From Patescibacteria group bacterium (GTDB lineage: Bacteria; Patescibacteriota; Microgenomatia; Daviesbacterales; UBA10151): DNA of 64,000 nucleotides. Position numbers and translations under genes: made by a program. The notes under the pieces are model-generated. The model made no database searches. It saw nothing but the letters and a program-made list of their open reading frames with translations, and was not told where the DNA came from. Where the stretch lies: the NCBI GenBank assembly GCA_943356485.1, contig CALRFD010000006.1, forward strand, positions 7,450-71,449, in the 5' to 3' direction. Positions 2,753 to 58,752 of this stretch are shown in pieces; position 1 is the stretch's first letter; each line of letters opens with the position of its first letter.

Positions 2753-4890
2753 TGGCTGTTACTAAAACCAAACGAGATTATCCTCTGGATAGAATCCGTA
2801 ATATCGGAATAATTGCACATATTGATGCAGGTAAAACTACGACTACCGAAAGGATACTTTTTTATACAGGAAGAACCTATAAAATCGGTGATATTGATGA
2901 AGGGACTACTACTACCGACTGGATGGAGCAAGAAAGAGAGCGTGGTATTACTATCGTATCAGCTGCCATCACGACCTTTTGGATTCCAAAGAGCGGACCT
3001 TTTAAAGATTTAGAGACCAGGATTAACTTAATTGATACACCGGGTCATGTTGATTTTACAGCTGAGGTAGAAAGATCATTAAGAGTTCTGGATGGCGGAG
3101 TTATTGTTTTAGACTCTTCTTCCGGAGTGCAATCTCAAACAGAGACTGTTTGGAGGCAGGCTAATAAGTATAAAGTCCCTTTGATTGCTTTCTCTAATAA
3201 AATGGATGTTGTTGGCGCAGATTTTTTAGGTACAATCCAATCTGCCAGAGATAGGCTTGGGGCAAATGCGATTGCTTACAATTTGCCAATAGGTAAGGAG
3301 AATGATTTTAAGGGAGTGGTAGATTTGCTTACAAAAACAGCTTTTATTTGGGAAGGTGATGAAACAGGGGCTAAATTTCATGCAGCTGAGATTCCTCAAG
3401 ATATGGTTTCGGAAGTTGACAGCCATAGAGAAAAATTAGTGGAGGAGATTGCCGGTTCAGATGATGTGTTAATGGAAAAATACCTTGGAGGTGAGGAGAT
3501 CTCAGTTGAAGAGCTAAAAGCAGCTCTTCGAAAAGCAGTTATCGACAATAAAATTGTTCCTGTTTTAGCCGGATCATCCTTGCGGAATAAAGGTGTGCAG
3601 TTAATGCTTGACTGTGTAGTTGAATATTTGCCTTCACCGCAAGATGTGAATGAATTCACCGGAATAAATCCTCAAACGCAGGAGGAAGAAATTAGAAAAG
3701 CTGTTGCCTCCGAGCCTTTAGGCGCTCTGGCTTTTAAAATTCAAGTCGATCCACATGTAGGAAAGTTAACCTATATCAGAATTTACTCAGGTACTTTAAA
3801 GAGCGGAAGCTATGTTTATAACGCCACAAAACAGATTAAAGAAAGAGTCGGCAGGTTGCTACTCATGCACGCTAATGATCGTGAGGAGATTGAAGAGGCC
3901 TATGCAGGGGAAATAGTTGCAGCAGTTGGGCTTAAAGATACAATCACCGGTGATTCACTTTGTGACGAATCTGCTCCTTTAATTTTGGAATCGATTTCTT
4001 TCCCTGATCCTGTTATCTCTCTGGCAATCGAACCAAAAACAAAGTCTGATCAGGAAAAGTTAGGTTATGCTCTGCAGAGACTGGCAGAGGAAGATCCGAC
4101 ATTTAGAGTCAAGTCTGATCCTGAAACACAACAAACAATCATTGCCGGAATGGGTGAGCTTCAACTGGAGATCTTAGTTGACAGGATGAAACGTGAGTTT
4201 AAGGTGGAAGCAAATGTAGGTCAGCCGCAGGTTGCGTATAAAGAAACGATTCAAAAAGAAGCTTTGGGTGAGGGTAAATATATCAGACAAACAGGAGGTC
4301 GCGGACAATACGGACACTGTTTGTTACGTATTGAGCCTCTTCCCAGAGGGCAAGGAAGAGAATTTGTATCAGCTGTTGTTGGCGGATCGATTCCAAGAGA
4401 ATTTATTGGACCGATTGAAAAAGGTGTTATTGAGAAAGAAGATACAGGATTATTAGCAGGTTATCCAGTAACTGACATTAAAGTAACAGTTTATGATGGA
4501 TCTTTCCATGATGTTGATTCATCTGAGATGGCATTTAAGATCGCCGGCAGCTTAGGTTTATCTGAGGCTTCTAAAAAAGCTGACATGATTCTGCTTGAAC
4601 CTATTATGAAGGTAGAAGTTACTACCCCGGATGAATTTTTAGGAGAGATAATTGGAGACTTGTCTTCAAAAAGAGCGCAAATTTTATCATCAGAAACTAG
4701 CGGAAAGGCTAGAGTGATAATTGCTTTGGTGCCTCTGGCTGAAATGCATGGATATGCTACAGCTATCCGGTCTATGTCGCAAGGCCGGGCTACTTACTAT
4801 ATGGAAGCAGATCACTATGAGCCTGTGCCAAGCAATATTACCCAAAAGATTATTGAAACCTCCGGCTTTACCGGACGTGTCGAACACTAA
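2752..4890 (+). CDS. fusA: elongation factor G
   Basis: [15 protein letters not shown]..., 712 aa, all EF-G domains present. Confidence 0.95.
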
Positions 4891-4902
4891 AAGTATTTCA
4901 GT

Positions 4903-5892
4903 ATGATATCTAAAGAGCAGTTAAACCTTGCGGTAGTGCCGGGTGGGAGTATGGGTCAAGCAATAGCTCTAATCGCTGCTCAAAAGGGTCATAATGTCAG
5001 GGTTTATCGAAGAGCGCATGAAGTTGACACCAGAGAAAGAGTTAATCTTCCTGATAATGTTAAAATATTTTCCTCATTGAAAGACACGGTTACGGGGGTT
5101 GATGTTCTTGTTCTAGCTCCGCCTACTCAAATTTTTGAAGAATTAGCCAGAGAGTCATTGTTTTATTTGAAGCGTGAGAGTTTAATTTTAAGCGCTTCAA
5201 AAGGATTACAAAAAGGAACTAATCATAGGCCCTCACAGATATTGGAAAACTTGGATCAGACTTTGCGGCCAAGAATAGCCGTTATGTCTGGTCCTAATTT
5301 AGCTTCAGGCATTCTAAGAGGTGATGAGACTGGAACGGTAATTGCTGCTTATAATTCTAAAGTTGCTAATTATCTTCGGGATAGGCTTGAAAATCCCAAA
5401 TTTATTATTCAAGCAGAGAAAGACCTTATAGGAGTAGAGTTGGGAGGAGCTTTTAAAAATTTAGTAGCCTTGGCTGCAGGTATGTTTGATGAAATAAATA
5501 TGTCAGCAAACACAAAGGCTTATTATATAACCAAGTTAGTAAGCGAATTAGTTGAAGTTGCCCTAAGGCAAGGTGCTAAAAGTTCAACATTCACCGGGTT
5601 GTCCTGGTTGGGGGATATTTTTTTGTGCACTACAGATAATGAAAGTAGAAACTATAGAGCTGGGGAGTTGTTGGTGAAAAATCCAAGGGCAGCTCAGGGT
5701 TTTTTGTCTGAAGATAAACCATGGTTAGCAGAGGGTGTGCATACTATTGCTCCTGCATACGCTTTGGCAAGAGTGAGCAATATAAATTCTACGCCTATAC
5801 TTGATTTGATTAATAACGCAGTATATACAGAACAAAGTCTTGAGGATGCTATTAATAGATTGGGGAATAATCGAGACTACCATGATTCTTGA
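4903..5892 (+). CDS. gpsA: NAD(P)H-dependent glycerol-3-phosphate dehydrogenase
   Basis: N-terminal Rossmann fold; ELGGAFKNLVALAAGMFDE...GLSWLGDIFLCTTDNESRNYRAG matches GpsA VGGALKNVIAIAAG...GLGDLVLTCTS..SRNRRFG. Confidence 0.75.
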   Translation: MISKEQLNLAVVPGGSMGQAIALIAAQKGHNVRVYRRAHEVDTRERVNLPDNVKIFSSLKDTVTGVDVLVLAPPTQIFEELARESLFYLKRESLILSASKGLQKGTNHRPSQILENLDQTLRPRIAVMSGPNLASGILRGDETGTVIAAYNSKVANYLRDRLENPKFIIQAEKDLIGVELGGAFKNLVALAAGMFDEINMSANTKAYYITKLVSELVEVALRQGAKSSTFTGLSWLGDIFLCTTDNESRNYRAGELLVKNPRAAQGFLSEDKPWLAEGVHTIAPAYALARVSNINSTPILDLINNAVYTEQSLEDAINRLGNNRDYHDS

Positions 5893-5924: not shown

Positions 5925-6905
5925 ATGGATCAAGTAAATAAAGCTAAAAATTCTTCACTACCACCAATAGGTCAGTTATTTAAAGAGGCCTGGAATACTT
6001 TTAAACGCAGTCTTTTGCAGTTAATTTTATTAAATATTTTAGGAATGGCAGTTTATTTTTTACTGGCTGCTTTGGCATTTGTTATTTTAGTATTAAGCGG
6101 TTTAGGATCCAGCATCCTGCAAAAAGGCTTAATGGGACTAAGTGCAATTACTCCATTATCCGGCATTATTTTTCTTGCAATAGGAGTTATCTCTTTAATT
6201 ATTGCTGCAGCAGCGCAGATTTGTGCAGTCTTAATTGTTAACGATAAAGCACAAACTAAACTAGTTGAGAAATTTAAAAAAAGCTTTAGTTATATCTGGC
6301 CTTTGTTTTTAATTAACTTAGTGACTGGTTTTTTGACAATAGGAGGGTCTTTTTTATTTGTCATTCCCGGAATACTTTTTATAATGCTTTTTTCCTATGT
6401 GCAATTTGAAGTAATTTTGAATAACCAGTTGGGCTTATCCTCCATAAAGCGCTCTGTTGGAATAATCAGTAAAAATTTTGGTGAGATTTTTATCCGGTAT
6501 TTGCTTCTAATTCTGATCTATTTTGGGATATCGATTGTACTTAGCATTTTTAAAAATATTTTGCCACAGGAATTAAAGTGGTTACCAAATATTATCTCCA
6601 GTATCATTCATATGTTCTGGGGTTGGTTTATGTTAGCCTTTAGTATTGTTTTATATAAACAGTCAAAAAGCGTAACAAGCAATGAGGAGGTCAGTAATAT
6701 TATCTGGATTTGGATAGTAGCTGTCTTAGGCTGGTTGATTGCTTTAAGTTTAACTATTATAACCTGGAAAGTGCTATACCCAGAGGTGTTGAAAGATGTA
6801 GAAACTAAACTTCCGCAAACTGTAATTTTAAACTCAGTAAAAGATTTTCCGTTATCAAGTGAGTCCTCGCCTTCAGCGAATAAAAAAACTTTCGGGAAAA
6901 ACTGA
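5925..6905 (+). CDS. hypothetical polytopic membrane protein
   Basis: 326 aa with ~8 hydrophobic helices; no recognisable family. Confidence 0.5.
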   Translation: MDQVNKAKNSSLPPIGQLFKEAWNTFKRSLLQLILLNILGMAVYFLLAALAFVILVLSGLGSSILQKGLMGLSAITPLSGIIFLAIGVISLIIAAAAQICAVLIVNDKAQTKLVEKFKKSFSYIWPLFLINLVTGFLTIGGSFLFVIPGILFIMLFSYVQFEVILNNQLGLSSIKRSVGIISKNFGEIFIRYLLLILIYFGISIVLSIFKNILPQELKWLPNIISSIIHMFWGWFMLAFSIVLYKQSKSVTSNEEVSNIIWIWIVAVLGWLIALSLTIITWKVLYPEVLKDVETKLPQTVILNSVKDFPLSSESSPSANKKTFGKN

Positions 6906-7030: not shown

Positions 7031-8215
7031 ATGGCAGACGCAAAAAAGTTCGATAGAAGTAAACCACACGTAAATATTGGCACCATGGGTCATGTTGACC
7101 ACGGTAAAACAACTCTTACAGCAGCTATAACTACTGTGCTTGCTGGTAAAGGCATGGCAGAAAAAAGATCTGTTGATCAAATTGATAATGCTCCTGAAGA
7201 AAAAGCTCGTGGTATTACGATTAATATTTCTCATCAGGAATACGAGACAGCTAAAAGGCATTATGCTCATATTGATATGCCTGGTCATGCAGATTATATC
7301 AAAAACATGATTACCGGAGCTGCGCAAACTGATGGAGCTATTTTAGTTGTTTCCGCCCCAGATGGTCCTATGCCTCAAACAAGAGAACATTTGTTATTAG
7401 CCCGACAGGTTGGAGTTCCGGCGATTGTAGTTTTCTTAAATAAATGTGACATGGTTGACGACGCCGAACTGCTAGATTTGGTTGAAGAAGAGGTTAGAGA
7501 TTTGCTTAAGAAATATGAATATGATGCAAATTCTCCAATAATTAGAGGATCTGCTAAAAAAGCTTTGGAAGGTGACCCAACAGCTGTAAAAGCCATTGAA
7601 GACTTAATGGATAAGGTAGATGAGTGGATTCCAACTCCTGTTAGGGATAAGGATAAACCATTTTTAATGGCAGTGGAAGATGTTTTCTCTATTAAGGGTA
7701 GAGGAACAGTGGTAACCGGTAGAATTGAAAGAGGAGTAGTAAAAGTTAATGAAGAAATAGAAATTGTGGGAATTAGGCCAACTAAAAAGAGTGTTGTTAC
7801 TGGAATTGAGATGTTTCACAAATTATTAGATCAGGGTGAAGCCGGAGATAATGCCGGAATTTTACTTCGGGGTGTTGAAAAAGATGATGTTGAAAGAGGA
7901 CAAGTTTTAGCCAAACCAGGCTCAATTACTCCTCATTCCGAATTTGAAGCGGAAGTCTACATTCTTTCTAAGGAAGAAGGCGGTAGGCATACTCCATTTT
8001 TCAAAGGTTACAGACCACAATTTTATATCAGAACAACTGACGTGACTGGTGAAGTAACTCTTCCAGAAGGTGTTGAAATGGCTATGCCAGGCGATACAGT
8101 TAAAGTGGTTGGAAAATTAATTACACCGGTTGCTATGGAAGATGGTTTAAGGTTTGCTGTTCGAGAAGGCGGTAAAACTGTTGGAGCCGGAGTTATTACC
8201 AAGATAATTGCCTAA
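7031..8215 (+). CDS. tuf: elongation factor Tu
   Basis: [15 protein letters not shown]..., 394 aa. Confidence 0.96.
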
Positions 8216-8243
8216 CATTTTGGTTGCACATTGAAAGGACTAT

Positions 8244-8552
8244 ATGCCAAGAGGAAGAATCAGAGTAAAACTGAAAAGTTTTGATCACAGAGTGTTAGAT
8301 AACACCTGTGAGTCCCTTTTGGATACAGCCCTTCGAACCGGCGCTAAGATTGTTGGTCCAATCCCCTTACCTACAAAAAGAGAGATGATTACTGTTCTAC
8401 GTTCTCCTCATACAGATAAAGATGCAAGAGAAGCATTTGAGATAAAAACCCACAAAAGAATGATTGATATTATTGAACCAACCCAAAAAACTATTGATTC
8501 GCTGATGCACTTGGAGATTCCCGCTGGCGTTGACATTGAAGTAAAGATGTAG
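8244..8552 (+). CDS. rpsJ: 30S ribosomal protein S10
   Basis: IRVKLKSFDHRVLD...GPIPLPTKRE... typical S10. Confidence 0.93.
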   Translation: MPRGRIRVKLKSFDHRVLDNTCESLLDTALRTGAKIVGPIPLPTKREMITVLRSPHTDKDAREAFEIKTHKRMIDIIEPTQKTIDSLMHLEIPAGVDIEVKM

Positions 8553-8587
8553 TTTTTACATCAACTTGCTTAAAATTATCACTTCTT

Positions 8588-8818
8588 GCAATTTACGCAC
8601 AAGACTGTTAAAATTCCTTTTAGTGATGACCATTTCAAGTGGTTAATTAATATTTGATATTTTCAGTAGATCGCGTCCTTCGCTTCTAAGGCACAGACGT
8701 AGATACGCTCAGGATAAACTGGTCGGTATCTGCAATTTGTCCTGAGAAATAGAATAAGGAAAGAAATACTGAGTGAGTGTTCCCTAAAAAGGACTCACTC
8801 TTTTTTGTGCGTAAATAA
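8588..8818 (+). promoter_or_regulatory. structured 230-nt rpsJ-rplC intergenic leader closed by a 10-bp inverted repeat (ATTTACGCAC ... GTGCGTAAAT) and ending in a GAGTGAGTG...CACTCACTC-T6 hairpin
   Basis: Long-range complementarity bracketing the whole spacer plus internal hairpins. There is no room for a promoter between the hairpin and the rplC start. Confidence 0.35.
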
Positions 8819-8819
8819 T

Positions 8820-9647
8820 ATGATTAATACATTATTAGGTGTAAAAAAGAATATGACTTCAACTTATGACTCTCGTGGCCGTCGGGTTGGCGCAACTATT
8901 TTAGAAATTGCTCCAAATTTTATAACCCAAGTCAAGACTATTGAGGGAAAAGATGGTTATAATGCTATTCAAATTGGAACCGGAACTAAAAAGTCCATTA
9001 AAAAGCCTCAGCTCGGCATTGGAAAAAAAGCTGGAGTTGAAAAACCAATTAGATGGTTTAGGGAAGTCAGAATTATGGAAAATCCCTCGACTTCGCTCGG
9101 GACTTTACAGCCTGGAACAGAAATCAAACTGAACCAGGTTTTTTCAATAGGAGATGCCATAAAAGTAACTGGAATATCTAAGGGTAAAGGATTCCAGGGT
9201 GGAGTTAGAAGACATGGCTTTCATGGCGGATCTAGAACACATGGTCAATCCGATAGAATGCGTGCGCCGGGTTCTATTGGCTCAGGAACAACTCCAGGTA
9301 GAGTTTATAAAGGAAAAAGAATGGCTGGACATATGGGCATGGATACTGTGACCACTAAGAATCTAGAGGTAGTAGGAATTGATAAACAGAAAAATCTATT
9401 AATAGTTAAAGGAGCGATTCCGGGTTCAACAGGCGGATTAATTAAAATAATAAAGCTAGGAAGAATTAAAGGTTATACTCCTCCACCTGAAGAAAAACCA
9501 TCTGAAGAAGAAATTTCAGAAAACTCTGAAAAACTCGGAAAGCCAGAAAACCAGAATTCCGGTGAGTCTGATAATTCTGATAAATCCGGTGCACAGAGTC
9601 CTTCTGAGTCTTCTGAAAAAGAGGAGGTAGTACCAGATGCCAGTTAA
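8820..9647 (+). CDS. rplC: 50S ribosomal protein L3 with acidic Ser/Glu-rich C-terminal extension
   Basis: MINTLLGVKKNMTSTYDSRG... aligns with E. coli MIGLVGKKVGMTRIFTEDG.... The track ORF begins at TTG 8805 and the likely ATG is 8820. The ~55-aa tail ISENSEKLGKPENQNSGESDNSDKSG... is not part of canonical L3. Confidence 0.9.
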   Translation: MINTLLGVKKNMTSTYDSRGRRVGATILEIAPNFITQVKTIEGKDGYNAIQIGTGTKKSIKKPQLGIGKKAGVEKPIRWFREVRIMENPSTSLGTLQPGTEIKLNQVFSIGDAIKVTGISKGKGFQGGVRRHGFHGGSRTHGQSDRMRAPGSIGSGTTPGRVYKGKRMAGHMGMDTVTTKNLEVVGIDKQKNLLIVKGAIPGSTGGLIKIIKLGRIKGYTPPPEEKPSEEEISENSEKLGKPENQNSGESDNSDKSGAQSPSESSEKEEVVPDAS

Positions 9648-10452
9648 AAATCCAAAGATCAAAATTCAAAAGTCAAAAGTTGAAGAAAAAATTGAAAAAG
9701 CGCTGAAACCTGCTACAGCTAAAAAAGCTACAAATTTGTCTATACCTGCTTTTTCTTTGCTGGGAAAAGCAGATGGGACAATAGATTTGCCAAAGGAGAT
9801 CTTTGGAGTTTTAGTAAATAAAGCATTACTGTCTCAAACAGCCAGGGTTTATCTTAATAATCAAAAAACTATCACTGCTTCAACTAAAACCAGAGGTCAG
9901 GTTGAAGGATCCTCAGCTAAGATTTATGCTCAAAAAGGAACAGGTCGGGCAAGACACGGAAGTGTTAGGGCACCCATTTTTGTAGGTGGTGGTATAGTTT
10001 TTGGTCCAACTCCTCGAAAAGTAATAATGGAGTTACCTAAGAAGATGAAAAAAGCAGCTTTGATTTCTGCTTTATCTGATAAAGCAGCAGAGAAGAAAGT
10101 TTTAGGCTTAACAGGCTTAGATAAGACAACCGGTAAAACAAAAGAGATTGCTAGCCTTTTAACTAAATTATCTGATAAAAAGAAAAAGGAAAGCGTTTTA
10201 ATTTTAACTGATAAAAATACGGATAATGTTTTAAGAGCGGTGAGAAATCTTCCTACGGTGAGTGTCTTCTCGGTTGAGACAATTAATGCCTATGAAGTGC
10301 TGAAACATGATTTATTGCTATTAACAAAAGAGGCAGTTGATAAATTAGGCAAAAGAGAGTCAAGTGGCAAGAATGAAGAGTCAAGTGAAAAAGTAGAAAA
10401 AGCAAAAATAAAAGTAAAAACAAAAACAGGAAAGGAAAGTTCTAGACTCTAG
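9637..10452 (+). CDS. rplD: 50S ribosomal protein L4 with Lys-rich N- and C-terminal extensions
   Basis: Core ...AQKGTGRARHGSVRAPIFVGGG... typical L4; 271 aa versus ~205. Confidence 0.9.
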   Translation: MPVKNPKIKIQKSKVEEKIEKALKPATAKKATNLSIPAFSLLGKADGTIDLPKEIFGVLVNKALLSQTARVYLNNQKTITASTKTRGQVEGSSAKIYAQKGTGRARHGSVRAPIFVGGGIVFGPTPRKVIMELPKKMKKAALISALSDKAAEKKVLGLTGLDKTTGKTKEIASLLTKLSDKKKKESVLILTDKNTDNVLRAVRNLPTVSVFSVETINAYEVLKHDLLLLTKEAVDKLGKRESSGKNEESSEKVEKAKIKVKTKTGKESSRL

Positions 10453-10469
10453 CGACTAGCCACTAATTT

Positions 10470-10934
10470 ATGATTATTCTAAAACGACCGATTATAACTG
10501 AAAAATCAATGAGGCTTGCGTCCGCAGGACTCTATACTTTTGAGGTAGACAAAGACGCTACAAAGCCAATGGTTGCTCGAGCTGTGAAAGATAAATTTAA
10601 TGTGAGCGTTTTAAGCGTAAAAGTTATACGTATAAAGGGTCAAACAAAAACACAAAGAACAGTTCGGAAAAATTATAAAGCTAGTGATATTAAGAAAGCT
10701 TTGATTAAAGTGGGTATTGGTCAAAAAATAGCAATCTTTGAAACTCCAAAAGAAGAAGTAGTAGTTACAACAGCAGAAGGCGAGCCTATAATGCTTCGAG
10801 AAAAGAAAGATCTCTTAGGTAGAACCAAAGTAAAAGTTGAAAGAAGTCCTGCCCGCAATGCTTCGCAACGCGTTGCAGGTGGGGCAGTAGGGGCAGCTCC
10901 GACAACTCAAAGAAAGGTAATAACAGGGAAATAA
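10470..10934 (+). CDS. rplW: 50S ribosomal protein L23 (C-terminally extended)
   Basis: Typical L23 N-terminus; 154 aa versus ~95. Confidence 0.88.
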   Translation: MIILKRPIITEKSMRLASAGLYTFEVDKDATKPMVARAVKDKFNVSVLSVKVIRIKGQTKTQRTVRKNYKASDIKKALIKVGIGQKIAIFETPKEEVVVTTAEGEPIMLREKKDLLGRTKVKVERSPARNASQRVAGGAVGAAPTTQRKVITGK

Positions 10935-13495: not shown

Positions 13496-13798
13496 ATGAA
13501 GAAAAACGAATTTGTGATTATTAAAGGACTTAGTATAAAAGAATTAAAGCAAAAGGCTAAAATTTTTAAAAAAGAAATAGCAGATTTGAATATGGATAAA
13601 AATATGAAGAAACTGAAGGATTTAAAATCCATTGATAAAAAAAGAAAAGACTTAGCTCAGGTTCTAACTGTGTTGAATCAAAAAGAACTTTTAGCAAAAT
13701 TGGAACCGAAAGCAGTGTCAAGTGAAGAGAAAAAAGTGTCAAATAAAAAAGTAGCAAAAATAAAAACAAAAGTAGGAAAGGAGAGTACTAGTCTCTAG
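13496..13798 (+). CDS. rpmC: 50S ribosomal protein L29 with Lys-rich C-terminal extension
   Basis: L29 N-terminal helix; 100 aa versus ~65; the tail and 3' junction duplicate the L4 tail. Confidence 0.8.
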   Translation: MKKNEFVIIKGLSIKELKQKAKIFKKEIADLNMDKNMKKLKDLKSIDKKRKDLAQVLTVLNQKELLAKLEPKAVSSEEKKVSNKKVAKIKTKVGKESTSL

Positions 13799-13823
13799 AC
13801 TCTAGCGACTAGCCACTAACTAT

Positions 13824-14303
13824 ATGACCGGACGAGTAGTATCAATAAAATTAAAAAATACAGCAACTGTTTTAGTCAGCAGAATAGCTATGCATCCTTT
13901 GTACAAAAAGACCTATGTTCGAACTAAAAGATTTTTGGTTGATGATCAAATTGGGGTTAAAGATGGGGATATTGTTGAGATTATAAAATGTAAACCAATA
14001 TCTAGGAATAAGCATTGGAGAATAGTTAAGGTTACCGGTGCAAATTTACAAGAGATAGCAGAAGCTAAACTAAAACAGGCAGCTGCAGAGGTCATCTCTG
14101 AAGCCATGCCGGTAGAGAAAAAAATGACAAGTGTCCCGCCTGTCGGCAGGCAGGTAATGCCAAAGGAAAAAATTTCAGAAAACTCTGAAAAACCGGGAGA
14201 GTCAGAGGATCAGAACGTCAGTGAATCTGATAGTTCTGACAAATCTGATACACAGAGTCATTCTGATAAGAAAAAAACCGGTAAAAAGAAAGAGATAAAA
14301 TAA
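13824..14303 (+). CDS. rpsQ: 30S ribosomal protein S17 with ~70-aa acidic C-terminal extension
   Basis: S17 OB-fold core (...[10 protein letters not shown]...); the tail [25 protein letters not shown]... is homologous at DNA level to the L3 tail. Confidence 0.88.
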
Positions 14304-14677: not shown

Positions 14678-15010
14678 ATGAATTTAAAAATGAACATTGT
14701 AAAAACAAAACTAAAAAAAGGGGATAGTGTTAAAATCCTTCTTGGAAAAGATAGTGGAAAAACAGGGAAAATAGAAAAAGTTTTGAATAAGAATGGGAGA
14801 GTTTTTGTTGGAGGGGTGAACCTGTATAAAAGGCATGTAAAGAAAATGGGAGATATGGAAGGTGGGATTATAGATTTGCCAAAATCCCTGCAGTTATCAA
14901 ATGTAGGACTAATTTGTCCTAACTGCAGCAAGGTAACAAGAATTGGCCTTAAGATGGATGGAGCCACAAAGGTGAGATTTTGCAGAAAATGTAAAAAGGA
15001 GATTAAATAA
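14678..15010 (+). CDS. rplX: 50S ribosomal protein L24 with C-terminal CxxC...CxxC zinc-ribbon
   Basis: KOW domain (KKGDSVKILLGKDSGKTGKI) plus CPNCSK...CRKCKK. Confidence 0.88.
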   Translation: MNLKMNIVKTKLKKGDSVKILLGKDSGKTGKIEKVLNKNGRVFVGGVNLYKRHVKKMGDMEGGIIDLPKSLQLSNVGLICPNCSKVTRIGLKMDGATKVRFCRKCKKEIK

Positions 15011-15014
15011 TTAT

Positions 15015-15566
15015 ATGAACAGATTAAAAGAAAAATATATAAATGAAGTTGTTAAGAAGCTACAGGATGAACTTGGCTTAAAAAATAAGCTATCGGTGCC
15101 AGCTATAAAAAAGGTTGTTATTAGTATGGGGTTGGGGGAGGCAAAGGATAACGCTTCAGTTATAGATAAGGCAAAGATCTATCTAACAGCTTTGGCTGGT
15201 CAAAAACCAATGGTAACTGTAGCTAAGAAATCTATAGCCGCCTTTAAAGTAACTCAAGGTCAACCTATAGGTATGATGGTGACCCTAAGGGGTGATAGAA
15301 TGTATTCTTTCTTAGATAAATTAATAAACGTAGTGTTGCCGAAGGTAAGGGATTTTCGAGGGATTTCAGACAAGTCATTTGATGGTTTCGGTAATTTAAA
15401 CATGGGATTTAAAGAACAAACTATTTTTGCAGAAGTTGATTATAAGACAGTTGATAAAACTAGAGGTATGGCTATCACTATTACAACGACAGCTAAAAAT
15501 AAGGATCAGGGTAAAAAATTGCTGGAAGGTTTGGGCATGCCGTTTACAAAAGGAGGTATATCGTAA
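15015..15566 (+). CDS. rplE: 50S ribosomal protein L5
   Basis: Typical L5, 183 aa. Confidence 0.93.
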   Translation: MNRLKEKYINEVVKKLQDELGLKNKLSVPAIKKVVISMGLGEAKDNASVIDKAKIYLTALAGQKPMVTVAKKSIAAFKVTQGQPIGMMVTLRGDRMYSFLDKLINVVLPKVRDFRGISDKSFDGFGNLNMGFKEQTIFAEVDYKTVDKTRGMAITITTTAKNKDQGKKLLEGLGMPFTKGGIS

Positions 15567-25391: not shown

Positions 25392-25482
25392 CCTCTTAAA
25401 AAGGGAGGCGTTTTTGTGGTTTAAGATAATTTTTAATTAAATAATCGATCCACAAGTAACCTCCCAATTGGGAGGTTTTTTT
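25392..25482 (+). promoter_or_regulatory. leader with two tandem SD-like hairpins (CCTCTT-N-GGGAGG-CGTTTTTGTGG and CCTCCC-AATT-GGGAGG-T7-GTGG) upstream of the 25506 ORF
   Basis: Two terminator-like stems whose 3' arms are GGGAGG; TTTGTGG after hairpin 1 can pair with CCACAAG before hairpin 2 (alternative structure). Confidence 0.4.
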
Positions 25483-25505
25483 GTGGTTGGAAGGAGGTGA
25501 ATATT

Positions 25506-25919
25506 ATGAAAGAAGAAATAAAAAATACAGGAATTGATCTTAGGTCTCAAGTTGCTGTTTTAACTAACAGCCTATTAGAGGCTAATAAAACAAAAGACTT
25601 AAAATTGCAATTAACATCTATGCAAAGTTTGACTGATTTATTGGCAAATACTCCTGGTGCAATAAATGCTTTAAGCCAGCTGCAAGAAAATAGAGATGTC
25701 TTGATAGATAAAAAAGTCTTATTATCACGCAACTCAAGAAAACTAATAAGCAGAGCGGTTGTATTAGGAATTGAGTCGACTGATTTAAAAGCAGAACTGA
25801 CAAATAAGGTAGAGGATGCTAAGAAAAAAGGGAGAGATAGACTAACCCGTGGAGATTTAAAAGATCTTGCTCAGGATGTTAAATCTAGACTAATTCAAAG
25901 GAGGCCTGTCCTTGTCTAA
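25506..25919 (+). CDS. hypothetical protein (~137 aa)
   Basis: GGAGGTG RBS 6 nt upstream of ATG 25506 (track ORF starts at GTG 25497); no recognisable family. Confidence 0.5.
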   Translation: MKEEIKNTGIDLRSQVAVLTNSLLEANKTKDLKLQLTSMQSLTDLLANTPGAINALSQLQENRDVLIDKKVLLSRNSRKLISRAVVLGIESTDLKAELTNKVEDAKKKGRDRLTRGDLKDLAQDVKSRLIQRRPVLV

Positions 25920-56816: not shown

Positions 56817-57179
56817 TCAATATTTTCTACCATTTCTTTGTTTTATTAATTCACGTCTTTTCCTGCTAATTATTGCTTCTACTTCCACCATTAAATCTAC
56901 AACCTCTTCAATTCTTTTCTGTGTTTGGTTTAATGTGTTGGCTAAAGTATTCAAATTAAGGTCTTCTCTAAATATTTCAGGCTGTCCTTCCGGTAGAACA
57001 AAAGACATTATAGTTCCCATTTCCCTTGCTAAATTTAATCTACCTTCCGTATCATCAGGTGCTAACCCTCTTAATATTCCAGTCTCAATCCATTGTTGAG
57101 TATAACTAAAAGGATTCGTTGCTGCTTGTTCAAATCTTTCAACCCAGACTTGCTGATGTGTTTTTACTTCTACTGCCAT
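56817..57179 (-). CDS. hypothetical protein (120 aa)
   Basis: ORF with its own leader hairpin, U7 tract and mini-uORF; no recognisable family. Confidence 0.45.
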   Translation of the reverse strand: MAVEVKTHQQVWVERFEQAATNPFSYTQQWIETGILRGLAPDDTEGRLNLAREMGTIMSFVLPEGQPEIFREDLNLNTLANTLNQTQKRIEEVVDLMVEVEAIISRKRRELIKQRNGRKY

Positions 57180-57356
57180 ATTTATCCGCCCTCTTTCTTA
57201 ATCATAAAAAAACCTCCCTTTAGGGAGGCTTGTCGCTTGGGTAATTTATTTAAAACTACCTGAACAAACCTCCCCTTCGTGAGGTAATAATAATTCCAAT
57301 AATTTGTATTGTCTTTGTTAGCATTTTTCTATAATACTACAAAGATTGTACAAAGT

Positions 57357-57743
57357 CTAGTTTTTTTCTTTCTTGCCTGTTAGTTCTTCTAGTCTTGATT
57401 GCATATGCTGAGATAGACTAGTTGCAATAACCAATGCTTTTTGTTGTAGCGAATTGTTACTGTGATTAACCATCGCTGTTAGATGGTCTGTTAAAAATCT
57501 TGCTTGTTCCGTTGCATAAGATTCTCTAGTTTCAGCATCTGGATCATATACAGATTGATCTGAGATAGTCCTCTCTCCCCCAGCTCTTCTTGCCATAATA
57601 GCAGAGTAAGCACTTTGTCTGGAAAGCCTGGTAACAGTGCGAGCCCCATACGGTTCTATTTGAGCAAGATCTGTCATTAGCCCATGTAAGGCGTCTACTA
57701 TTTGCATAGGTGCAATTTTTGTTTCTGTTGTCATTTTATTCAC
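57357..57743 (-). CDS. hypothetical protein (~125 aa)
   Basis: Likely start is ATG 57734 (MTTETK...), 9 nt after AAGGAGG; the track lists GTG 57743. Confidence 0.45.
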   Translation of the reverse strand: MNKMTTETKIAPMQIVDALHGLMTDLAQIEPYGARTVTRLSRQSAYSAIMARRAGGERTISDQSVYDPDAETRESYATEQARFLTDHLTAMVNHSNNSLQQKALVIATSLSQHMQSRLEELTGKKEKN

Positions 57744-57750
57744 CTCCTTT

Positions 57751-57838
57751 CATATTTTTTCCATAAAAAAACCTCCCATTTCGGGAGGTCTATTCCTTTC
57801 TCTTTTAGATTTTAATTAATCTAAAAAGACCTCCCTAA
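57751..57838 (-). repeat. 88-bp leader element, copy 1 (identical to 58505-58592): terminator/SD-sequestering hairpin + U7 + AUG mini-uORF, with upstream competing GGGAGG
   Basis: Exact 88/88 match. Minus strand reads UUAGGGAGGUCUUUUUAGAUUAAUUAAAAUCUAAAAGAGAAAGGAAUAGACCUCCCGAAAUGGGAGGUUUUUUUAUGG. Confidence 0.85.
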
Positions 57839-57952
57839 CGTTATCCCCCAAAAGGAGACTTTGTGTAAGAAGGCTAAGTAATAAGTTAAAATTTAGTTTT
57901 AAAGTTTTAATCATAAGATTGAATATATATTTAAATCATTTAATTGTCAAGT

Positions 57953-58507
57953 TTAAAAACAAGCAAATTGTCTTTCTAAATCTTTAATACTATTTATTCC
58001 AGGGACAACCCTGGGTTGTTTTCCTGTAGCAATTTGTTTAAAAGAAGATAGTGTTTCAGCTGAAGCTCTAATTAAATCTTGAACTAAAGCATCTGTAGAA
58101 AGTGGGTTACTATCACCATTTTCTCTTAATGCATCAATTACTTGTTCCGGTGTTGCTATTAGGCATGGCAGGTTACTAATACGAAATTTTCCAGAGTATC
58201 TTGCTCTATGATGACCATCAATAATAAATAATTGTATATTTTTGTTAGGAATAGCACAGACTAGAATAGGATTTTCATTCAAGTAGTTTATGCCTTGTTG
58301 AGCTAACCTTCGTTCTACCGAGGATCTTTTGCAACCGTCGTATTCCTCTCTAGTTTGAATTCCAAAAAGATGTATTCTTGGAATTAACAATCTAGGTGTC
58401 TTTGATTCTAAACTTTCTTTTAATTTATTCCCCTCTACGAATTGAAAGCTAGAGCAAGATAGCTGTCGTCTATCAATAATAGGTTTTTCCATTTCTAAAT
58501 AATTCAT
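57953..58507 (-). CDS. ParB/sulfiredoxin-fold (ParB-like nuclease domain) protein
   Basis: ...NPILVCAIPNKNIQLFIIDGHHRARYSGK... has the DGHHR-type motif of the ParB/Srx superfamily; 184 aa. Confidence 0.5.
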   Translation of the reverse strand: MNYLEMEKPIIDRRQLSCSSFQFVEGNKLKESLESKTPRLLIPRIHLFGIQTREEYDGCKRSSVERRLAQQGINYLNENPILVCAIPNKNIQLFIIDGHHRARYSGKFRISNLPCLIATPEQVIDALRENGDSNPLSTDALVQDLIRASAETLSSFKQIATGKQPRVVPGINSIKDLERQFACF

Positions 58508-58592
58508 ATTTTTTCCATAAAAAAACCTCCCATTTCGGGAGGTCTATTCCTTTCTCTTTTAGATTTTAATTAATCTAAAAAGACCTCCCTAA
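58505..58592 (-). repeat. 88-bp leader element, copy 2 (identical to 57751-57838); its uORF MEKI* overlaps the ATG of the ParB-like gene (ATGA)
   Basis: Exact duplicate; upstream promoter-like TTGACT-17-TACAAT at ~58700. Confidence 0.85.
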
Positions 58593-58752
58593 ATAACCAC
58601 CTGAAATGGTGGCCATAATAAGATGGAGGACGTATTTAATATTATTGATTTGATTTACTTTTAACATATATTTAAAAAAACTACAGACCTAAAGTCTATA
58701 GAATATATGAATTGTAATCCTAAATATTATAAAAGTCAAATTTGAAAAATAT

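Follow-up and report, generated by a model that had tools for sequence, protein, structure and literature searches.

The DNA analysed here, a stretch of 64,000 nucleotides (nt) from a Patescibacteria group bacterium of the Daviesbacterales (assembly GCA_943356485.1, contig CALRFD010000006.1, positions 7,450 to 71,449; hereafter the window), carries the S10-spc cluster of ribosomal protein (r-protein) genes on its + strand, in the order tuf, rpsJ, rplC, rplD, rplW and onwards to secY, adk and map. Two genes of this cluster, rplC (encoding uL3) and rpsQ (encoding uS17), share a block of in-frame DNA within their 3' tails, here called the module or cassette. The organism is an uncultured Candidatus Daviesbacteria (Microgenomates). 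The S10-spc gene order is found in the window and in 31 relatives, and within the GTDB species collection the window's uL3 gene is closest to those of Daviesbacteria metagenome-assembled genomes (58-78% identity). Both hosts are genuine uL3 and uS17 by their Pfam domains (PF00297, PF00366) and their conserved operon positions. Our comparisons covered 1.87 Mb, made up of the window, 31 Daviesbacteria operon loci of ~20 kb, ~50 metagenome loci and others, with Daviesbacteria accounting for ~1.2 Mb; these are loci, not whole genomes. Below, W denotes the window genome, and L and P numbers denote compared loci and proteins. The two genes and the two copies of the module are as follows.

8820..9647, + strand: rplC (uL3), 275 amino acids; open reading frame with Pfam PF00297 at E=7e-13
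9507..9607, + strand: uL3 copy of the shared module, EEISENSEKLGKPENQNSGESDNSDKSGAQSPSE, codons 230-263; self-BLAST and in-frame alignment
13824..14303, + strand: rpsQ (uS17), 159 amino acids; open reading frame with Pfam PF00366 at E=1e-18 over residues 3-69
14166..14266, + strand: uS17 copy of the module (codons 115-148), after which comes the basic end typical of the family; self-BLAST

Self-BLAST of the window aligned 9507-9607 with 14166-14266 over 101 nt without gaps, at 81.2% identity (E=6e-19), which confirms the shared block that the original prediction had proposed from the letters alone; the identical run inside it, given there as 23/23, exists and is 24/24 (9511-9534 = 14170-14193). 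The two copies are read in the same frame across 34 codons, and per 34 residues they encode 9-11 acidic, 3 basic and 2-3 hydrophobic residues. In uL3 the cassette probably extends to ~9620, through an arm encoding SESSEK. Overall the cassette measures 100-112 nt, and the two tails lie 4.7 kb apart with uL3 upstream.

Since the sequence is built of TCAGA and TCTGA words and is compositionally biased, such a match might come about by chance convergence of Ser/Glu/Asp-rich tails under codon bias, or else as an assembly artefact. The best ungapped score between the tails was 63, compared with a mean of 11.0 (standard deviation 1.7) and a maximum of 25 in 2000 codon shuffles of both tails, so that none of the 2000 reached even 40% of the observed score. 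Codon bias is therefore not the explanation of the match, which, as the original prediction held, is an extended alignable block. Nor are the tails an assembly chimera, as the window is matched at 100% identity by the Logan assembly of run ERR5863124 (L081, 12,024 bp, containing both copies) and by a 2.1-kb piece of an ENA assembly (L082), and genomes that come from unrelated studies have homologous modules at both of these sites. We regard chance and artefact as refuted, their residual probability being negligible.

The tails themselves are older than the module. In the window, the uL3 core runs up to GYTPPPEEK (residue 226) and is followed by a 49-residue acidic tail (14 D+E, 4 K+R), while the rplC stop codon overlaps the rplD start (ATG 9637). 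An acidic tail of ~20-70 residues follows the invariant GYTPPPEEK in all Daviesbacteria uL3 examined (the tails of 31 relatives), and these tails end in E.NAS*, residues that are encoded by the rplD Shine-Dalgarno sequence and start codon. Likewise, all Daviesbacteria uS17 examined consist, beyond the core, of a helix, EVMPEEK, a variable stretch and a basic terminal run such as KKKETK. Because the uL3 and uS17 of all relatives already have tails, the module lies within pre-existing hypervariable tails, and the earlier description of tails appended to otherwise canonical proteins is not supported as it stood. In both proteins the module is preceded by Pro-Glu-Glu-Lys or GAA-rich sequence. An AlphaFold2 model of uS17 (81-sequence alignment) places an oligonucleotide-binding fold at residues 1-70, with a predicted local distance difference test score (pLDDT) >90 (core 1-72), and a helix at 75-94; no secondary structure is predicted after residue 94, and residues 100-159 have pLDDT 48-62. 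The encoded peptide would thus be an acidic, Ser/Asp/Glu-rich disordered spacer on the ribosome surface, whose function is probably generic.

The module is also a long imperfect palindrome, a property overlooked in the original prediction. Its arms in the uL3 copy are as follows.

9514..9536, + strand: 5' arm, TTTCAGAAAACTCTGAAAAACTC; inverted-repeat search, 23 nt, 83% complementary to 9596-9618
9596..9618, + strand: 3' arm, GAGTCCTTCTGAGTCTTCTGAAA; ends 2 nt before the rplD Shine-Dalgarno sequence GAGGAGG (9621-9627)

The dyad and the shared block have the same boundaries. The 5' arm encodes SENSEK and the 3' arm SESSEK; an exact reverse complement of the former would encode SEFSE, a peptide retained in L008, P0129 and P0210. 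For four copies together, RNAalifold predicts one long hairpin of 28 pairs. Individual copies gave the following minimum free energies, with z-scores against codon shuffles.

W-uL3: -32.9 kcal/mol, z -2.9
W-uS17: -31.6 kcal/mol, z -4.4
L083: -32.8 kcal/mol, z -3.6
L002, weak: -25.4 kcal/mol, z -1.7
L020, fold lost: -18.3 kcal/mol, z +0.25

These folds raise the possibility that a hairpin in the mRNA (or DNA) is itself functional at the cistron junction, through translational coupling or mRNA stability at rplD and rplN, with the peptide as a by-product. The three strongest copies (W-uL3, W-uS17 and L083) fold at about -32 kcal/mol, standard pairs fill 88.5% of pair cells in six copies compared with 22-41% when partners are slid, and conservation is equal at all codon positions. 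The position of the copies is also suggestive, as they end 30-39 nt before the next start codon, the uL3 hairpin lies 2 nt from the rplD Shine-Dalgarno sequence, and another duplicate in this operon, in the uL4 and uL29 genes (described below), includes the stop codon, the intergenic region and a Shine-Dalgarno-like GGAAAGGAG. Yet covariation in the six copies is not above controls (129-140 of 500 shuffles reach the observed level), the fold is lost in L020 and weak in L002, and most relatives are without such a hairpin at these junctions. An Rfam scan of the whole window returned one tRNA only, with no structured-RNA match at the module. Because covariation matches the shuffled controls, we regard the dyad symmetry as something that the cassette has inherited, make no claim of a selected structure, and consider a functional hairpin rather improbable. 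If hairpins do act on the polycistronic mRNA, they would add a new layer of r-protein operon control in the candidate phyla radiation (CPR).

Across the 1.87 Mb compared, the module is confined to uL3 or uS17 tails, and the 64-kb window itself holds two copies, both in r-protein tails. Full-length copies of what we term type 1 occur in the uL3 of W (P0122), L002 (=P0123) and P0125, and in the uS17 of W (P0002), L020, L170 (=P0003), L169/L083 (=P0092/P0001) and P0044. A type-2 form, SENSENS..Q.V...SD.SD.SGTPSNSE(S/F)SEK, is found in ~10 further uL3 proteins and in the uS17 of P0111 and L172. The family is accordingly present in at least 13 of the 120 nearest uL3 proteins (the three of type 1 and ~10 of type 2) and, among the matches listed, in six of 120 uS17 (P0002, P0003, P0092, P0044, P0111 and, by DNA, L020), with L172 found separately; it is commoner in Daviesbacteria uL3 tails than in uS17 tails. 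Module-bearing uL3 proteins are scattered over the uL3 core tree, and L002, one of them, is among the most distant genomes (70% core identity to W). Module-like remnants occur in deep-branching genomes, in the uL3 of L008, L031 and L005 and the uS17 of L016 and L031.

Wider searches added little. A W-only profile had no match among 1.84 billion representative proteins. A module profile (A4) run against a 5.8-billion protein database returned the single match P0001, and because the window's own uL3 went unrecovered in that search, we treat it as weak negative evidence. A metagenome scan with module patterns gave 296 pattern matches, none of which was confirmed, and viral contigs had no match to the module DNA pattern or to P0001.

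An indication of how the two genes came to share the module comes from three genomes (W, L172 and L021), in each of which the copy in uS17 is of the same variant as the one in uL3. W has type 1 in both genes, the copies sharing ISENSEK. L172 has type 2 (SENSENS..QNV) in both, at 71% identity over 144 nt (E=2e-15). In L021 an unrelated module, SEQATGDSEQSE, is common to uL3 and uS17, at 72.5% over 102 nt (3297-3390 vs 7720-7819). In a 26-genome matrix of tail scores, the within-genome uL3/uS17 values of W (63), L021 (37) and L031 (24) exceed the between-genome 99th percentile of 23. As regards derived states, variant types match within W, L172 and L021, yet overall identities are star-like.

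The best-supported account, and one to which we give slightly better than an even chance, is that a hairpin-forming in-frame cassette has repeatedly been copied, ectopically, from one to the other of the disordered, E-rich uL3 and uS17 tails. For the uS17 copy of the window, the source would have been the uL3 tail of this operon, 4.7 kb upstream, copied non-reciprocally through gene conversion or template switching primed by GA-rich microhomology and hairpin-prone sequence, and such copying from uL3 to uS17 would have recurred in the family. The direction is probably from uL3 to uS17; we infer it, the mechanism and the absence of a sequence-specific function from the patterns described here.

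Several observations weigh against this account. Among five ungapped copies, drawn from four genomes, every pairwise identity falls within 70-82%, regardless of gene or genome. W-uL3 is identical to W-uS17 at 82/102 positions, to the L002 uL3 at 82/102 and to the L170 uS17 at 81/102, and the W copies are equally close to other Daviesbacteria copies (the uL3 of L002 and the uS17 of L020, L170 and L169). The alignment columns of the five copies comprise 55 invariant, 30 singleton, 12 mutually conflicting doubleton and 5 multi-state. Judged from this alignment, their relationship is essentially a star with conflicting splits, in which the W copies are no closer to one another than to the rest. 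Nor is the 24-nt identical run significant as a conversion tract (by our own estimate P~0.08 at 80% identity), and no conversion tract is statistically demonstrable. The closest sampled genome, L001 (83% identity over 1657 core residues), is missing the module from both uL3 and uS17; L002 and L171 have a uL3 cassette without a uS17 copy, and the uS17 copy of L020 has no clear counterpart in uL3. Finally, third positions in the r-protein cores are saturated (identity 0.42-0.58) even between W and its sister genome, as against 0.74-0.76 in the module, and an excess of identical codons at matched amino acids over the core expectation was found in four of six pairs (P=0.002-0.02). The copies thus look younger than the species splits, unless there is constraint at the nucleotide level. 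Because of the star, the unsaturated synonymous sites and the lack of copies in L001, vertical descent with intragenomic conversion is by itself insufficient; lateral exchange among Daviesbacteria or nucleotide-level constraint is needed for the star-like, patchy pattern.

It follows from the star that the W pair is not a private recent duplication. The two W copies differ at ~20% of sites, with a synonymous divergence (dS) of 0.47 and a ratio of non-synonymous to synonymous divergence (dN/dS) of 0.38. Together with the equally close copies of other genomes and the lack of a module in the sister L001, these values do not support the 'recent' duplication originally predicted; homology of the block and its copying between rplC and rpsQ still stand. 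Substitutions in the W pair fall on all three codon positions (identity 0.79/0.85/0.76), and between copies in general dN/dS is 0.38-0.86 and dS 0.29-0.60. By these ratios selection on the encoded peptide is weak, its exact sequence being barely selected (dN/dS 0.4-0.9).

The main rival to ectopic copying is that the module is a non-autonomous mobile palindromic element, of the kind of a miniature inverted-repeat transposable element (MITE) or a Rickettsia palindromic element (RPE), which inserts in frame with a preference for GAA-rich targets after PEEK and spreads between genomes and genes. It would account for the star-like relation of the five copies, for synonymous sites that are unsaturated while those of the host genomes are saturated, and for the patchy occurrence on the uL3 tree with absence from L001; dyad arms at the ends of the shared block, a size of ~100-125 nt and the reading frame kept by every copy, in uL3 or uS17, would be expected of it as well. 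What speaks against such spreading is that no copy lies outside uL3 and uS17 tails in the 1.87 Mb of loci, that viral contigs, metagenome patterns and 1.84 billion representative proteins yielded no confirmed copy, that no transposase partner is known, and that tail segments which are unrelated to the module and not palindromic show the same kind of sharing. As for insertion footprints, the uS17 flanks are A/G-rich (AAGGAAAAAA / AAGAAAAAAA) and their similarity is indistinguishable from low complexity, while comparison of empty with filled sites (sister L001 and others) met tail alignments too poor for insertion boundaries. We consider a mobile element unlikely.

The remnants in deep-branching uL3 (L008, L031, L005) and uS17 (L016, L031), and the fact that all uL3 and uS17 of the family are tailed with conserved ends, could instead suggest that the module was duplicated once, in the ancestor of the Daviesbacteria, and has since descended vertically, being kept where selected and eroded elsewhere, so that the present similarity reflects constraint. 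Under such descent the copies should group by gene, and neither the uS17 nor the uL3 copies do so; the uS17 variant type follows the uL3 of the same genome. The dN/dS values of 0.4-0.9, the high third-position identity relative to the cores, and column statistics that fit a young star and not a saturated plateau also argue against it, and we find an ancient duplication decidedly improbable.

Among known systems, ectopic gene conversion and concerted evolution act between paralogous bacterial segments, such as the tuf genes and the rRNA operons. Recurrent copying between uL3 and uS17 would resemble them in that non-reciprocal copying keeps segments of the same genome alike and the variant type tracks the partner copy. 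Unlike in paralogues, the hosts here are non-paralogous, only a short tail is shared, and the copies are ~80% identical rather than near-identical.

RPEs are in-frame palindromic MITE-like insertions in protein-coding genes (PMC10969869). Like them, the cassette is an imperfect palindrome (~100-150 bp in RPEs) that keeps the host frame, adds a surface peptide and is patchy among related genomes. RPEs are spread over dozens of unrelated genes as well as intergenic DNA, whereas the cassette was found only in two r-protein tails; where RPEs form an internal loop, the cassette adds acidic, disordered residues to a C-terminal extension, and, again unlike RPEs, it has unrelated non-palindromic tail segments in the same operon that behave alike. 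PARCELs, tandem arrays of a 25-residue amphipathic motif in membrane or surface open reading frames of unknown function (2010, PMC2996958), are similar in that coding DNA has dyad symmetry with arms giving similar peptides (here SENSE / SEFSE-SESSE), in their punctate distribution, and in that intragenomic shuffling and horizontal gene transfer were proposed. They differ from our cassette, which is a single, non-amphipathic acidic unit without tandem array in essential ribosomal proteins. Our literature search found no description of a tail cassette shared by uL3 and uS17, RPEs (PMC10969869) and PARCELs (PMC2996958) being the nearest analogues.

CPR r-proteins often carry clade-specific terminal regions without Pfam domains, according to parts of a survey (Tsurumaki et al., bioRxiv 10.1101/2022.01.07.475337) that also describe length differences (e.g. 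S19, L1, S13, S15) and an L3 tending to be smaller in CPR; these passages mention neither Daviesbacteria uL3/uS17 tails nor sequence sharing between r-proteins. More broadly, r-protein genes are the standard example of vertical, conservative evolution and serve as markers for CPR phylogenies. That their 3' ends can be mosaic, recombining and possibly laterally exchanged bears on alignment trimming and on the origin of lineage-specific ribosome extensions, and raises the question of whether palindromic coding elements, known from Rickettsia and Mollicutes, have a part in shaping the essential proteins of ultra-small bacteria too.

The uL3/uS17 pair is one of several duplicated tails in this operon. 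Self-comparison of the window and of related loci gave the following further pairs.

10352..10473, + strand: uL4 tail, stop codon, intergenic motif CTCTAGCGACTAGCCACTAA and rplW start; partner 13709-13827
13709..13827, + strand: uL29 tail, stop codon, intergenic motif CTCTAGCGACTAGCCACTAA and rpsQ start; 76% identity to 10352-10473, with a 26-nt identical block
L004, uL29/uS17: 14769-14979 vs 15234-15446; ~170 nt identical, continuing through the stop codon and the intergenic region as far as the next ATG
L002, uL29/uS17: 14800-14921 vs 15240-15357
L016, uL22/uS17: 6387-6480 vs 8232-8325
L024, uL4/uL2: 4803-4922 vs 6097-6224

With several operon tail pairs duplicated, 3'-end copying between neighbouring r-protein genes is recurrent in Daviesbacteria; and because most of the other shared tail segments are not palindromic, recombination is favoured over transposition. 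The uL4 and uL29 tails share the peptide ..K.K.KTK.GKES..L* and the 20-nt intergenic motif CTCTAGCGACTAGCCACTAA. More generally, there may be a pool of exchangeable r-protein 3'-end cassettes (an acidic hairpin, basic tails, and units of stop codon, intergenic region and ribosome-binding site) that are copied within the S10-spc operon and passed between species, making the CPR ribosome surface modular, possibly with selection for matching uL3/uS17 tails. We put this forward tentatively, as a possibility well short of an even chance.

The Shine-Dalgarno-like GGAAAGGAG precedes motif CTCTAGCGACTAGCCACTAA, ~40 nt before the ATG, and CTAG-based mini-hairpins lie between it and the start. The motif recurs after uL29/uS17 (L004), uL22 (L012, L014) and uL4 (L031), and at three junctions in L091, and the unit looks like a portable cistron-junction cassette. 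The tail peptides GGKQTKVVVDNLA.. and LSVLSGQLS..KTDNRK likewise recur in different r-proteins of different genomes.

A second palindrome in the uS17 tail, upstream of the module, had been proposed as the mediator of the transfer (as a remnant of a 'family-A' palindrome).

14121..14160, + strand: GC-rich palindromic in-frame insert in uS17, core CCCGCCTGTCGGCAGGCAGG at 14135-14154; separate from the module

This palindrome is present in a single copy in the window at <=3 mismatches, and none adjoins the uL3 copy of the module. The uS17 of L015, P0010, P0011, P0014 and P0020 have a GC-rich insert (AVPAGRQVMPEEK) at the same site without the module; conversely, those of L020, P0003, P0092, P0044, P0111 and L172 have the module directly after EVMPE without the GC-rich palindrome. 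As insert and module are independent of each other, palindrome-mediated transfer is unsupported, and we reject it. A diverged duplication, ATGCCGGTAGAGAAAAAA / ATGCCAAAGGAAAAAA (MPVEKK / MPKEK; ATGCC..GA.AAAAA), flanks the uS17 insert.

Short GC-rich in-frame insertions occur at three places in this 36% GC genome: in uS17 (14121-14160), in uL23 (10849-10884; PARNASQRVAGG where relatives read VEKSAVGAAPTT) and in uL3 (~9083-9118; NPSTSLGTLQPG). Those of uS17 and uL23 are GC-rich hairpins, and similar peptides (FDSAQDK, ARLAEASAKRA, PVKDEARQRRQ) are seen in other Daviesbacteria r-protein tails. This suggests in-frame palindromes similar to repetitive extragenic palindromes (REPs) or RPEs.

Sequence that may stem from mobile elements precedes the module-bearing uS17 3' end in one population, represented by L083 (1-1283) and L169 (1-1589) (GCA_041643075.1 / GCA_041643055.1), which differ from each other in this upstream sequence. 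In L083 it holds phage-like genes, namely a tail-fibre-like open reading frame (PHROG 5795, E=6e-9) and a 202-residue open reading frame with IMG/VR relatives; in L169 an IS110-family transposase lies directly upstream of a full rpsQ. The two contigs have 210 bp in common at 99.5% identity, with the breakpoint in an A-run. We rejected a reading of L083 as a phage with a captured uS17 tail, since the uS17 fragment leads into the rplN start and agrees at 99.5% identity with L169, where the uS17-uL14 junction is normal; the upstream junction of L083 may be an assembly chimera or a mobile-element insertion. For the two contigs together, the choice lies between chimeric assembly and mobile elements next to rpsQ.

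Upstream of rplC, the spacer from rpsJ is unusually long (267 nt, window 8553-8819). At ~8709-8747 it holds an inverted repeat, CTCAGGATAAA...TTTGTCCTGAG, and at ~8771-8801 a hairpin that resembles a terminator, with a T-run behind it. Among relatives the distance between these genes varies from ~150 nt to 4.6 kb, and the junction therefore seems to accept insertions. Elsewhere in the window there are other dispersed repeats unrelated to the r-protein tails, of 100-240 nt overall and 67-73% identity: 57749-57984 vs 58503-58728; 25421-25529 vs 57161-57274 and 57711-57835 (inverted); and 2437-2537 vs 25414-25518.

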